DNA of 64,000 nucleotides, from the NCBI RefSeq assembly GCF_003334815.1, contig NZ_QOWO01000019.1. The stretch is one strand, 5' to 3'. Of this stretch, positions 17,901 to 35,900 are shown piece by piece; the stretch's first letter is position 1; the number at the start of each line of letters is the position of its first letter. Origin of the DNA: Escherichia coli. GTDB lineage: Bacteria; Pseudomonadota; Gammaproteobacteria; Enterobacterales; Enterobacteriaceae. Made by a program: the position numbers.

Positions 17901-20900
17901 CAGCGGCTTGATTTTCATCTGTCGGGTAGCCTTCCATCTCTGGGGTGATGAACAAACGATATCCGCTGTAATCCGCTTTTCTTACCATCGTTACGGTCAA
18001 CATGGCTGCGCCAGAGAGACGGGAGAGAACATAGGTGCCATTGGTTGTGGCGACATTTTCCACCGCAAAGAACGGCGCGAAGGAGCTGCCTTTACGACCA
18101 TAATCCTGATCGGGAGCAAACCATACCGCTTCACCTTTCTTCAGTGCACCGACAATGCCGCGCAGATTATTTCTGCCGATCATCGCTTTGTTAGAGCGCA
18201 TGCGCCCACGGGTCTGCACCCATTCCATCAGCTGATTATTATGTGGACGATAGGTAGCCATCATTGGTTGGCACAGTCCCATCACGCGGCCGCCCAGTTC
18301 CAGCGACATAAAATGGACGCCGACAACCATTACGCCGCGATTTTGCATTTGTGCGCGTTTAAGGTTATCCAACCCTTCAACATCAAACCATTTACGTACG
18401 CGACTGTCGGGCCAGAACCATGCCATGCCGGTTTCTACCAGCGCCATGCCGAGTGAACGAAAGTTTTCGGCAATCATCTTCTCGCGTTCTTCCGCAGAAT
18501 GCTGCGGGAAACAAAGTTCCAGGTTTTTACGGGCGATAGATTCACGACGTTTCAGGAATGGTCGCGCCATTGCGCCAATACGCGTGCCGAGAAAGCAGAG
18601 AACAGGATAAGGAAGCTGTACCCAAAGCCAGAGTACACCAAGCCCAAACCATGTGAGCCAGTAGCGAGGATGTAGAAACTCGCGGGAAAATTTGCATTGT
18701 GGAAACATAGTTACCTTCTGTAGATACGAATTGTTGTATCGCAGAAGATTCCATGTCGACAGCGGTACACTCAATTGGTTGGGCCATCATGTACGACAAT
18801 GGTTCCTGTAAAGAGTGTAAAGACTAGTCAGGACATAACCACGAGGAGCATGAATGCGGTATCTGTACTTTATCACTCGCTGACTGCTTTCAGCTACTGA
18901 TTATTAATCGTGCAAAGTAAATATTTTTCCGTACACAACAGTCTTGCATTTAACATGCTGTTTTCATTGATGCTTAGCAAAAATTGCCAGAGGTTAAGGA
19001 TTGTCTTACTATTAAAGTGACTGAAGTTACAGGTTTTTTAGCGCGGCAGGAGGTTGAGCTATGATTAATTTATGGATGTTTCTCGCCCTGTGTATTGTCT
19101 GCGTAAGCGGCTACATCGGTCAGGTACTGAACGTGGTATCGGCGGTCTCTTCTTTCTTCGGCATGGTGATCCTCGCTGCACTCATTTATTACTTCACCAT
19201 GTGGTTAACTGGCGGTAATGAACTAGTGACGGGGATATTTATGTTTCTTGCCCCGGCTTGTGGCTTGATGATTCGCTTTATGGTGGGGTATGGCAGGCGG
19301 TAGTGGGTCAGGATGGCTCATTTGGGCAGGTGTTCACATCAGCATCAGACATGATTGTTCACCTGCCATGTGAAAGACGCTATCGCACAGGATGAATAAG
19401 ATAATTCGCCTTTGTCGGAAAAGGGGGCGGCATTTCTTCTGTGAGGTTTAATGGTGGCGCATCTTCTCTCATCTTAAACAAAATCGCCTGTGATGGCTGA
19501 AGTTTTGTAGAGTGTGTGGTCGTCATCGCTGATGTTTTTTCAGTCTCTTTATAGCTCCTCTCACTTCCACCACCCGAAATGGAAAATGCAAAAACATTGC
19601 ATGCCATAATAGAGACCAATAAAAATAAGCTGAAAAGTATTAAGTTTACTTTCATAGAAAGTTATCCTGAAAATGGTTCACTGAGAACCTACGATGTTAT
19701 GGCTGTATTTACATTTAATTAATCAGTATTTACATCGATATAATAAATGACATCTCTTTGTGGTATATAAGAATAGTTCTCTGCGACAGGAAGCATATTC
19801 CTACAATTGTAAGACTAAAATACTTCTTGCGATAATAACTACAACTGTAAGATAACCCTTTCAAAATGACCGTTGCTCTCTGATTTCTCATTTCATGCTC
19901 ACCCAATATGATGGCGGCGTTTTCTAAAACTGTTAAAGAATGAGGTAAGTATGAAACGTTTAATTATGGCCACGATGGTCACAGCAATTCTGGCATCTTC
20001 AACTGTATGGGCTGCTGATAATGCTCCGGTAGCGGCACAACAGCAAACTCAGCAAGTTCAGCAAACCCAGAAAACGGCAGCGGCAGCAGAGCGTATCTCT
20101 GAACAAGGTTTATATGCGATGCGTGACGTGCAGGTAGCGCGCCTGGCTCTGTTTCATGGCGATCCAGAAAAGGCAAAAGAACTGACCAATGAAGCTTCCG
20201 CTTTGCTGTCAGATGACAGTACCGAATGGGCAAAGTTCGCTAAGCCAGGTAAAAAGACCAATCTCAATGATGACCAATATATTGTCATTAATGCATCTGT
20301 CGGAATTTCTGAGAGTTATGTAGCAACTCCCGAAAAAGAAGCCGCGATAAAAATTGCCAATGAAAAAATGGCGAAAGGGGATAAAAAGGGCGCAATGGAA
20401 GAGCTTCGCCTGGCCGGTGTTGGCGTAATGGAAAACCAATATCTGATGCCACTTAAACAGACTCGTAATGCACTTGCTGATGCGCAGAAACTGCTTGATA
20501 AAAAGCAATACTACGAGGCAAACCTGGCGCTTAAAGGTGCGGAAGATGGAATCATCGTCGATAGCGAAGCACTGTTTGTGAACTAATGCTGACAGGCAGT
20601 ATATTGAGGTAAAGGATTTAACTCCCTCCAGCCGACAATTTTTTATGACCACAATACGACAGGTTGTGGTCATAAAATTATTTGGCGCTCGCGGTGCTAT
20701 AAACTCGCATTTTATATTCCTCAAAGTAAACCGCAATAATCCCGTGTCATCACAAATCATTTATTATGTTATGTTTTATGGTACGCTTTAAAAAGCGTAA
20801 TCATACCCTTGCTTGTAAATCACCGGCGCTTCTTACAGTTGTAAGAATAACATCACAAATGTCGCGACTCTCTCTGATTACCACGAATCAATATTTATCA

Positions 20901-32900: not shown

Positions 32901-35900
32901 CAGTAGTATCAGTTATTTCTCTGATCTCTTTAGTCATTTGGGAGTCGACCTCAGAGAACCCGATTCTTGATCTCAGTTTGTTTAAGTCCCGTAACTTCAC
33001 CATTGGTATTGTGAGTATCACATGCGCGTATTTATTTTACTCTGGAGCGATCGTCCTTATGCCGCAGTTACTCCAGGAAACGATGGGGTATAATGCGATA
33101 TGGGCCGGACTTGCTTATGCGCCCATCGGCATCATGCCACTATTAATTTCACCTTTGATAGGACGTTATGGCAACAAAATAGACATGCGGTTGTTAGTGA
33201 CATTTAGTTTTTTGATGTATGCGGTTTGCTATTACTGGCGTTCTGTGACATTTATGCCAACGATTGATTTTACAGGCATCATTTTGCCGCAGTTTTTTCA
33301 GGGATTCGCCGTTGCCTGTTTCTTTTTACCCTTAACAACGATTTCGTTTTCAGGCTTGCCAGATAATAAATTTGCCAATGCCTCGAGTATGAGTAATTTT
33401 TTTCGTACCTTGTCAGGATCAGTTGGTACGTCGTTGACAATGACGCTGTGGGGACGACGCGAATCGTTACACCATAGTCAGTTGACAGCAACCATCGATC
33501 AATTTAACCCCGTGTTTAATTCATCGTCACAAATTATGGATAAATATTATGGTTCGCTTTCAGGAGTTCTTAATGAAATTAATAATGAAATAACCCAGCA
33601 GTCACTTTCTATTTCTGCAAATGAGATTTTCCGTATGGCGGCTATTGCTTTTATCTTACTTACGGTTTTGGTTTGGTTTGCGAAACCGCCGTTTACAGCG
33701 AAAGGCGTTGGGTGATGATAAAAGGAGGGGGTTATAGCGGGTAAGACCGGGGATCTTAAGTCTGCGCCATCGGCAGCATCGCTCACCCAGGGAAAGGATT
33801 GCGATGCTGCGTTGAAACGTTATTAACGGCCTTTTGCCAGATATTGATTCATCTCTTCTTCCGGCACCATTCCACCTCCCGTCGCCCACACCAGATGAGT
33901 GGTATTACGCAGTTGTTCTGCGCTGAAACCGTGCATCTGTTGGTAACTTACTGATGCACACACGCGCTGAGGTCCGGCCATACCCGCCAGTGCCGAAGGT
34001 TCAAGACGAATACCTTCTTCCTGCGCCAGCCAGCCAAGCATGTCATACATGGTTTGATCGCTAAGGGTATAGAAGCCATCCAGCAGACGCTCCATTGCCC
34101 GCCCGACAAAGCCTGATGCGCGACCAACTGCAAGGCCATCCGCTGCGGTAAGGTTGTCGATACCAATATCCTGAACAGAAATCTGATCGTGTAATCCTGT
34201 ATGGACGCCTAACAACATACAAGGGGAGTGCGTTGGTTCGGCAAAAAAGCAGTGAACATGATCGCCAAACGCCAGTTTAAGCCCGAATGCGACGCCACCA
34301 GGACCACCGCCAACACCACACGGCAGATAGACAAACAGAGGGTTATCAGCATCGACGATACGGCCTTGCTGGGCAAATTGCGCTTTAAGACGCTGGCCAG
34401 CGACGGAATACCCAAGGAACAACGTGCGGGAATTTTCGTCATCAATAAAGAAACAGTTCGGGTCAGACTGCGCTGCTTTACGTCCTTCCTCGACGGCAAC
34501 ACCATAATCTTGCTCATATTCCACGACCGTAACGCCATGGCTGCGCAGTTTCGCTTTTTTCCATGCCCGGGCATCAGCAGACATATGAACTGTCACCTTA
34601 AAGCCAATGCGGGCGCTCATAATGCCGATTGATAACCCCAGATTTCCGGTTGAGCCCACAGCAATGCTGTATTGGCTAAAGAACTGTTTAAACTCCGGAG
34701 AAAGCAGTTTGCTGTAGTCATCATCAAGCGTCAGCAACCCCGCTTCCAGAGCCAGTTTTTCTGCGTGTGCCAGGACTTCATAAATCCCGCCGCGTGCTTT
34801 TATGGAGCCGGAAATGGGCAAATGGCTATCTTTTTTCAGTAACAGTTGCCCGCTGATCGGTTGCTGATATTCTTTTTCCAGCCGTTTTTGCATAGCTGGA
34901 ATGGCAACCAGTTCTGATTCAATAATCCCCCCAGTGGCAGCAGTTTCAGGAAATGCTTTTGCCAGATAGGGTGCAAAACGGGATAAGCGCGCATGGGCGT
35001 CCTGAACATCCTGTTCGGTCAGGCCAACATAAGGTAAACCTTCAGCCAATGAGGTCGTGCCAGGATTAAACCAGGTGGTTTCTTTAAGAGCAACCAGATC
35101 CTTTACCAACGGATACTGGGCGATGAGCGAGTTCATTTTAGCGTTTTCCATAGTACGTCTCTTTGCGCTTAGATGATAAATGACAGCAGGAATGTGCCCG
35201 CCAGAGCGACGACTGAAGCGATAAATGTCGCTGTCGTATAGTATTTAAATGTTTCATTGAGCGTAGCGCCGCAATATTGCTTCACTAGCCAGAAAAGCGA
35301 GTCCGTAACGATAGTGCAGCCAATTGCACCTGAACCGATAGCAATCGCAATAATTTCCGGGCTGATGTCGGGATACAGCGGCAGCATGGGTGCAACAATT
35401 GCCGTTGCCCCCATCATTGCCACGGTAGCGGAGCCCACTGCCGCATGCAGAATAAGAGCCACTAACCAGGCCAGAAGAATCGGGTGCATATGCATATTGG
35501 AGAGAATAACTGCCAGCGTATCAGCGAGACTGCTGCTTTTTAAAATGGCGTTGAATGCGCCTCCGGCCCCGATAATCAGCAAAATATTAGCAATAGAACC
35601 GAAGCCATTTTCCGTATGTGTGAGCATCGTCCCCATGCTCATATGCTGGCGTATACCCAACACATAATAGGCGACAAACACGGCGATAAACATGGCAGTG
35701 ATAGGGTTGCCAATAAACTCAACCAAGATATACAAACCACTCTCACGCGCCATATTCAATTCGGCAATCGTTTTAACCAACATCAGCGCAATGGGTAGCA
35801 GTATGGTGAATAACGTTGCGCCTAATGACGGTAGTGTTTTTTCATCGCGAACTTTGAGATCTGCAAACTCTGTGGGTACAGGTTTAAAGGGCAGTCGTTG

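Follow-up and report, generated by a model that had tools for sequence, protein, structure and literature searches.

The 64,000-nt stretch of Escherichia coli DNA analysed here (contig NZ_QOWO01000019.1 of assembly GCF_003334815.1, hereafter the window) contains an AT-rich block at positions 19380-33715 that encodes the EvgS/EvgA phosphorelay. On the evidence of its sequence, we consider it very probable that this block unites the phosphorelay with three adjacent, directly activated transcription units in one foreign cassette acquired before the diversification of E. coli. In the mechanism that we propose, whose initial steps come from the literature, EvgS would phosphorylate EvgA at mildly acidic pH, and an EvgA dimer would bind 18-bp inverted repeats of the form TTCYTACA-NN-TGTARGAA and directly activate yfdX, the frc unit, and emrKY. 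At emrK, frc, and yfdX alike, the in-register box would lie ~72-75 bp before the transcription start, with yfdX having a second, better-matching box 38 bp further upstream. The outputs would be oxalate-dependent acid tolerance (frc, oxc, yfdE, yfdV), the periplasmic YfdX protein, and the EmrKY-TolC efflux pump. The genes from yfdX to emrY would constitute one conserved nine-gene cassette, foreign in composition, within a variable region between lpxP and argW. Published work on this system, one of the most thoroughly studied two-component systems of E. coli K-12, already covers the regulon and its binding motif as well as the foreign, H-NS-bound nature of the DNA, so the finding is correct but ordinary, and the incremental additions made here are modest: a fourth box together with its register, the empty site, and the cassette in other genera.

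The published work covers much of this scheme. One paper places EvgA-bound inverted repeats before both yfdX and yfdW(frc)UVE (PMC3720670, citing Masuda and Church 2003), and two others name the emrK and yfdX promoters as direct targets that EvgA activates or binds (PMC5706723, PMC9496106), both relying on Kato 2000 for the binding of EvgA at emrKY and its direct control of these genes. The evgAS genes have also been described as low in guanine plus cytosine (G+C), H-NS-bound, horizontally acquired, and missing from close relatives (PMC7641745). An earlier note on this DNA, written from the sequence alone, had placed several functions under one regulator, which the literature supports (PMC3720670, PMC5706723, PMC9496106). 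The window carries the same system as the EvgS/EvgA regulon of K-12 (Kato 2000, Masuda and Church 2002 and 2003, and Itou 2009, as cited in PMC3720670, PMC5706723, PMC9496106, and PMC4283999), with the same genes, order, and 18-bp repeats upstream of yfdX, frc, and emrK, and it departs from it only by strain-level differences (EvgS N672K, Frc P287L, and no CPS-53 at argW). A 15-kb region around the block is ~100% identical to E. coli K-12 records (~99.98% for the MG1655 record) and was found in 5426/5426 complete E. coli genomes, 5386 of them with at least 80% coverage. The gene names and limits of the earlier note also hold, as the MG1655 annotation puts ypdI to emrY at the coordinates that it implied.

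Each of the nine proteins encoded from yfdX to emrY exceeds the curated cut-off of its NCBIfam model. On the + strand, the annotated yfdX (19951-20586) encodes a periplasmic YfdX-family protein (NF007645, 379 bits versus a cut-off of 256) and is followed by frc (21099-22349; formyl-CoA transferase; TIGR03253, 780 versus 504 bits), oxc (22403-24097; oxalyl-CoA decarboxylase; TIGR03254, 1046 versus 739 bits), yfdV (24167-25111; a transporter with an equivalog match above its cut-off), and yfdE (25185-26330; acetyl-CoA:oxalate CoA-transferase; NF008511, 884 versus 522 bits). The enzyme functions of the frc, oxc, yfdV, and yfdE group are those given in PMC3720670, and the Frc/Oxc oxalate decarboxylation pathway is represented by equivalogs of both of its enzymes in this one group of genes. 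The next two genes are on the - strand: the annotated evgS (26386-29979) encodes a hybrid sensor kinase (NF007420, 2880 versus 1995 bits) and evgA (29984-30598) a NarL/FixJ-family response regulator (NF007419, 438 versus 251 bits), only 4 nt apart, with the cognate regulator directly upstream in the operon. Back on the + strand, emrK (31014-32177; TIGR00998, 487 versus 391 bits) and emrY (32177-33715; TIGR00711, 572 versus 230 bits) encode the membrane fusion protein and the major facilitator superfamily (MFS) permease of a TolC-dependent efflux pump. The presence of an EmrA/EmrK-family adaptor and a DHA2 14-helix MFS permease in one operon identifies an EmrAB-type MFS tripartite pump, while the EmrA- and EmrB-specific models fell below their cut-offs on EmrK and EmrY, as expected of paralogues. 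An Rfam scan of the block returned no RNA family.

EvgS contains two periplasmic solute-binding-type domains, a PAS-like region, HisKA/HATPase, a receiver, and HPt (PF00497, PF00512, PF02518, PF00072, and PF01627), and it matches its own structure, PDB 9ILW, while EvgA matches PDB 5F64, 8ZWN, and 3F6C. The label BvgAS-like, which the earlier note had used, is justified because the periplasmic region of EvgS (residues 43-538) matches the BvgS structure 4Q0C with E = 1e-46. Both BvgS/BvgA of Bordetella and KvgS/KvgA of Klebsiella pneumoniae resemble EvgS/EvgA in having a hybrid kinase with two periplasmic Venus-flytrap domains and a PAS region, a His-Asp-His relay, and a NarL-family regulator. 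The Bvg system differs in that it controls virulence genes and is active by default.

Direct control of the three units depends upon the EvgA boxes. The consensus that we scanned for was taken from the earlier note and is attributed to Masuda and Church 2003. When up to 2 mismatches were allowed, the window contained 3 matches versus 0.02 expected from dinucleotide-preserving shuffles, all on the + strand: TTCCTACAATTGTAAGAC upstream of yfdX (box 1; 19798-19815, 1 mismatch), TTCTTACAGTTGTAAGAA upstream of frc (20830-20847, 0 mismatches), and ATCCTACAGGCGTAAGAA in the divergent evgA-emrK intergenic region (30823-30840, 2 mismatches). These are the three positions that the earlier note had read by eye. 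Its count was incomplete, as allowing up to 3 mismatches gave 4 matches versus 0.48 expected, the additional one being a weaker, degenerate box 2 upstream of yfdX (TAACTACAACTGTAAGAT; 19836-19853, + strand, 3 mismatches). In 250 kb of unrelated K-12 DNA, there was no match at 2 or fewer mismatches and there were two matches at 3 mismatches. The same motif occurs elsewhere in the genome upstream of safA (TGCCTACAGCTGTAAGAA) and ydeP (AGCCTACACCTGTAAGAA), which are independent direct EvgA targets; in all, 332 kb were scanned. The boxes are all oriented alike, with a perfect half-site TGTAAGAA toward the activated gene and a more variable distal half-site; for the evgA-emrK box, the perfect half-site faces emrK. 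The frc box had been called a perfect palindrome, which is true of its 8-bp arms; the central GT is not self-complementary, leaving a 16-of-18 palindrome. Both the intergenic regions and the consensus are AT-rich, which could in principle yield such boxes by chance in AT-rich intergenic DNA. That explanation is already refuted and retains almost no probability, given the excess over the shuffled expectation, the phylogenetic conservation of the boxes, the recurrence of the motif at safA and ydeP, and the fact that all three boxes stand upstream of, and point to, known EvgA-induced genes.

Conservation of the boxes was examined by comparing the intergenic sequences with those of a divergent Escherichia (L003; EvgS 91% identical) and a Yersinia locus (L081; EvgS 82% identical). 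In these alignments, each box and the ~35 nt downstream of it form a conserved island amid diverged intergenic DNA. The frc box is kept in both relatives within an otherwise diverged spacer, yfdX boxes 1 and 2 are equally conserved in both, and the evgA-emrK box, which is retained with a conserved downstream element, is the only one that no full cassette examined has lost, even where EvgS identity is as low as 55%. The boxes also share a fixed register: exactly 24 nt and then CTCTGAT follow the frc box and the yfdX box of every cassette examined, and a TC-rich element is found at the same distance from the emrK, safA, and ydeP boxes. The composite of a box, 24 nt, and CTCTGAT occurs exactly twice in the window (yfdX box 2 and frc) versus 0 expected. 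Thus, the K-12 yfdX site in the conserved register is box 2, with box 1 located 38 bp beyond it. It is a serious possibility, if somewhat short of probable, that the operative EvgA site at yfdX would be the degenerate box 2 and that box 1 is auxiliary or a recent addition. Box 2 precedes CTCTGAT by 24 nt in the register of the frc box, the yfdX boxes of Yersinia, the Ewingella-like organism, K. variicola, and the Klebsiella kvg locus share this register, and box 2 is conserved as well as box 1 in both alignments. However, matches with 3 mismatches do arise by chance, as the two in 250 kb illustrate, and box 1 is the better consensus match and is conserved too.

A consensus scan predicts a yfdX core promoter at 19885-19912 (+ strand; TTCTCA, 16 nt, TATGAT), and its TATGAT is conserved in Yersinia. 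Counting from predicted -10 elements, the in-register boxes would be centred ~72-75 bp upstream of the predicted emrK, frc, and yfdX starts, while box 1 would be centred ~112 bp before the predicted yfdX start. A position of ~-72 to -75 would fit an activator that contacts RNA polymerase from upstream. Between yfdX and the frc unit lies a terminator-like hairpin (20641-20677, + strand) with a 15-pair stem followed by a T-rich tail, and the stem is conserved in the divergent Escherichia and Yersinia. This division fits the separate EvgA-induced repeats described for yfdX and yfdWUVE (PMC3720670). In the more distant cassettes, the promoter-proximal half of the yfdX box reads TGTCATCC or TGTCAGAC, and the yfdX-frc spacer is only ~124 bp with no box, versus ~512 bp with its own box in Escherichia and Yersinia; in these distant cassettes, transcription from the yfdX promoter presumably continues into frc. 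We also considered an origin of the frc promoter by duplication of the yfdX promoter and rejected it, as the identity beyond the box and CTCTGAT (26/70 positions versus a null of 18.3 ± 3.7) is too weak.

The low G+C of the block, also pointed out in the earlier note, is borne out by measurement. The block has 42.5% G+C versus 50.7% for the remaining window, and every 1-kb bin from 19001 to 34000 has a G+C of 0.379-0.468. As a stand-in for genome-wide variance, we used 14.3-kb windows in five arbitrary 50-kb pieces of MG1655 (250 kb), which had a G+C of 0.484-0.596, and the block falls far outside this range. The G+C at third codon positions (GC3) is likewise atypical, as the nine cassette genes have values of 0.37-0.42 versus a mean of 0.548 (standard deviation 0.073) for the 32 other genes of the window (Mann-Whitney p = 6e-5). 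The AT-rich run had been drawn from ypdI to emrY. The annotated ypdI (19380-19655, - strand), a small lipoprotein gene with a G+C of 0.402 and a GC3 of 0.391, is indeed AT-rich and inside the low-GC stretch, but it is outside the conserved cassette: it matches no NCBIfam model and does not adjoin the cassette in Yersinia, the Ewingella-like organism, or Klebsiella.

The case for acquisition rests upon gene order as well. In a related enterobacterium (L100; LpxP 82% identical), the order is sixA-fadJI-yfcZ-fadL-mlaA-yfdC-argW, then 255 bp, then lpxP-alaC-ypdAB-glk, and in Pseudenterobacter timonensis (L101) 8 kb of unrelated genes lie between argW and lpxP, so both relatives examined have the syntenic site without the cassette. 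In E. coli, the corresponding interval is occupied by yfdY and ypdI, by the nine-gene cassette, and by dsdAXC. Judged by this gene order, the block is an insertion at the lpxP-argW site because yfdC-argW lies directly beside lpxP in L100. For the same kind of reason, namely that the argW-lpxP interval of related enterobacteria is empty or has other cargo, we read lpxP and argW/yfdC as the true core flanks, and not dsdA. The earlier note had spoken of flanking core genes, but the right-hand neighbours dsdAXC are not core and belong to the known variable argW-dsdCXA island. The dsdA, dsdX, and dsdC genes (33823-37659) have a normal G+C of 0.48-0.51 and fill the rest of the variable segment from the cassette to argW (37755-37829, - strand), a tRNA-Arg(CCT) gene that forms its core-side boundary. 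The argW-dsdCXA island is a recombination hot spot (PMC4366372, citing Moritz and Welch 2006 and Jahreis 2002), and argW is a documented recombination and integration hot spot as well as the integration site of CPS-53. The literature on this neighbourhood concerns dsdCXA, csc, and prophage variation beside argW, with the evg cassette just beyond; unlike dsdCXA, the cassette is invariant in E. coli.

Several other genomes were considered for the comparison of the site and set aside. Salmonella was rejected as an empty-site control, since its lpxP lies between menI and sufA. In Salmonella enterica CP191473.1 (L097), the lpxP homologue in that position is 75% identical, whereas E. coli lpxP is beside alaC. 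Lying at another locus in Salmonella, the left core neighbour of the block is, from these two gene orders, also non-syntenic between E. coli and Salmonella. Two LpxP homologues that had been candidates for other Escherichia species were discarded, P0153 because it is K-12-like DNA with a longer open reading frame (ORF) call (L098, 99.97% identical) and P0146 because it comes from a frameshift-ridden assembly (L099). On the far side of argW, yfdF (40068-41126, - strand) is the most AT-rich gene of the window (G+C 0.355, GC3 0.306). It stands alone between mlaA and fadL, is not at that position in L100, and is probably another small insertion.

To follow the cassette in other genomes, we relied upon a protein search and contig look-ups. 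A contig scan with EvgS returned mostly BarA/ArcB-type kinases through a generic receiver-domain pattern, with one true evgS locus (L003) and a contaminant fragment as its only useful results. The identity of EvgS homologues falls sharply, from the E. coli cluster to 82%, then 64%, and then 54-58%. The cassette occupies the same site in the divergent Escherichia with 91% EvgS identity, while all nine genes are found in the same order in other surroundings in Yersinia, an Ewingella/Rahnella-like organism, and Klebsiella variicola. In Yersinia the cassette adjoins arsRBC, and the proteins encoded beside it match Yersinia entries exactly; in the Ewingella/Rahnella-like organism it lies on the downstream side of smpB, the tmRNA gene, and a gene for a P4-type primase. 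The K. variicola copies include one flanked by insertion sequences (IS) on the 378-kb plasmid CP103421, which is without emrKY, and copies of evgAS on E. coli IncF plasmids are bounded by IS1 and IS26. The gene set thus occurs both in other chromosomal contexts and on mobile elements. As read here, the Yersinia, Ewingella/Rahnella-like, and K. variicola cassettes contradict the statement in a 2022 review that EvgS/EvgA are not found outside E. coli and Shigella (PMC9496106). Whether emrYK-evgAS-yfdE-yfdV-oxc-frc-yfdX would be a single transferable acid-resistance cassette of several Enterobacterales, with the evgA-emrK and in-register yfdX boxes ancestral and the frc promoter and yfdX box 1 as additions in Escherichia and Yersinia, seems to us evenly balanced on these comparisons.

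Some features of these loci deserve mention in their own right. Two plasmids, L090 (pWE_M_1, IncFIB) and L091 (pYLMB51b), carry a second evgAS copy with 96-99% protein identity, in which the box upstream of evgA is kept. The IncF plasmid evgAS genes have as a neighbour an ariR/ymgB-family gene, near which EvgA-box-like sequences occur; one of the plasmids also places them next to a ydeQRST-like fimbrial operon. Of the other cassette genes, the Klebsiella kvgAS locus retains yfdX alone; it resembles the evg locus in this adjacent yfdX and in its EvgA-box-like repeats, and it differs in being without frc-oxc-yfdV-yfdE and emrKY, in its 59% G+C, and in its hdeA and hdeD flanks. In that locus (L089 2088-8513), the hdeA and hdeD homologues directly flank kvgAS, and in the Ewingella/Rahnella-like locus (L082 1289-23103), slp and hdeD-hdeA homologues directly flank the cassette. 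A more distant evgAS-like pair (EvgS 44%, EvgA 50%) is found in K. pneumoniae (L088 9361-16058), accompanied by a second EvgA-like regulator, an hdeA homologue, and TTTCCTACGCCTGTAGGA-type repeats upstream; this may be the KvhAS system. The slp and hde genes also belong to the acid fitness island of E. coli (slp-hdeAB-hdeD-gadE-mdtEF-gadXW-gadA), which, like the evg block, is an AT-rich, H-NS-silenced acid-resistance cluster that combines acid protection with a drug efflux pump, and which is downstream of EvgA. In E. coli, EvgA controls the acid fitness island indirectly, and the island is unlinked to the evg block, unlike slp, hdeD, and hdeA in the Ewingella/Rahnella-like and Klebsiella loci, which directly adjoin the evg/kvg cassette.

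How much of this amounts to acquisition of a foreign unit has to be weighed. The acquisition is old, because the region is present in all of the complete E. coli genomes and at the same site in the divergent Escherichia. The earlier note had the module arriving together with its targets, and the empty site and the whole cassette in other genera and on a plasmid support this. However, some targets did not travel with the regulator, since ydeP and safA-ydeO are found at other genomic locations. Several further points weigh against a simple foreign origin. There is no annotated integrase in the block and there are no direct repeats bounding it, and although argW is nearby, dsdCXA separates it from the cassette; the block is therefore not a classical integrative island today, and no mechanistic trace of its arrival is left. 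The codon adaptation index, a rough, home-made measure referenced to 11 highly expressed K-12 genes (2591 codons), is only modestly lower in the cassette (0.34 versus 0.43, p = 0.02), and yfdX, frc, and oxc are near average. The cassette DNA of E. coli and Yersinia is 78-85% identical, about the same as an lysS fragment (84%), so any Escherichia-Yersinia transfer was not recent, and a recent transfer was rejected on these figures. Low G+C is a property of the Escherichia and Yersinia copies (0.41-0.43) and not of the cassette itself, because elsewhere its G+C follows the host (0.48, 0.51, and, for kvgAS, 0.59). Finally, on the regulatory side, the box positions relative to the starts are predicted, as is the mode of activation.

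The composition in particular admits another explanation, which we consider unlikely: the low G+C would be no foreign relic and would have been maintained or produced inside Escherichia, for instance through selection for H-NS silencing of a costly stress regulon or through AT-biased mutation in poorly expressed genes. H-NS binding has been reported (PMC7641745), and the unlinked ydeP-safA-ydeO locus, home to the remaining main EvgA targets, is AT-rich too (G+C 0.445). In addition, the cassette is universal in E. coli and present in the divergent Escherichia, yet has not drifted toward 50.8% G+C, and the homologous cassettes of other hosts are near host G+C. On the other hand, the syntenic site is empty in one relative and has other cargo in another, and copies of the cassette are known from unrelated genomic surroundings as well as from plasmids. 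These observations establish acquisition independently of composition. The two ideas are compatible, and the low G+C that persists in a block universal to E. coli may reflect maintenance as well as origin. Acquisition of the phosphorelay and its three adjacent units as one cassette thus remains the reading that we favour.

The upstream region of evgA holds one further element. A leader peptide ORF, evgL (30595-30624, - strand; 9 codons, MLHCKGNNL), can be read from the sequence, with a stop codon that overlaps the evgA start codon, and it is missing from the RefSeq annotation used. An evgA leader from -114 to +7, with the evgL start codon at leader positions 89-90, has been described, and evgL couples evgA translation to CsrA control (PMC11210196). 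Together with the sequence, this numbering implies an evgA transcription start near 30712 and a 114-nt leader that holds evgL. The motif TGgTATACT at 30719-30727 precedes the implied start, and the shared evgA-emrK box is ~120 bp upstream of it.

The differences from MG1655 are few. At 37754-37829 (dsdC/argW/yfdC), the window is without the 10.2-kb CPS-53 (KpLE1) prophage that MG1655 carries at argW; the gap is precise and excision-like with a 16-bp overlap, the remaining window is 99.98% identical to MG1655, and the same empty argW junction is present in 912/5426 complete E. coli genomes. EvgS N672K (window position 27964, evgS codon 672) has K here and N in MG1655, and a 61-mer around it has no identical match in the 5426 complete genomes, the best match being 60/61. 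Residue 672 lies between the activating EvgS mutations G658A and G701E (PMC4283999); the cytoplasmic PAS region to which it belongs is also the site of constitutive evgS mutations, and a literature search found no mention of N672K. The Frc P287L change is at 21958 (frc codon 287), and further differences at 2327, 8441, 17314-17315, 39635, and 50873 comprise four substitutions and a C -> AA change between alaC and ypdK, for about one difference per 7 kb. By our own estimate, such a density is higher than expected between K-12 laboratory sublines, and it suggests a mutagenised derivative or a close natural relative.

For the biology of the Enterobacterales, the comparative results give a clearer view of a sensor, its regulator, and its first targets moving as one unit. 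This unit would later have been rewired, with emrK keeping its site, frc gaining a promoter, and yfdX acquiring a new site beside one that is degenerating. The results could guide the dissection of EvgA promoters, and they correct the view of EvgAS as a system confined to E. coli and Shigella.

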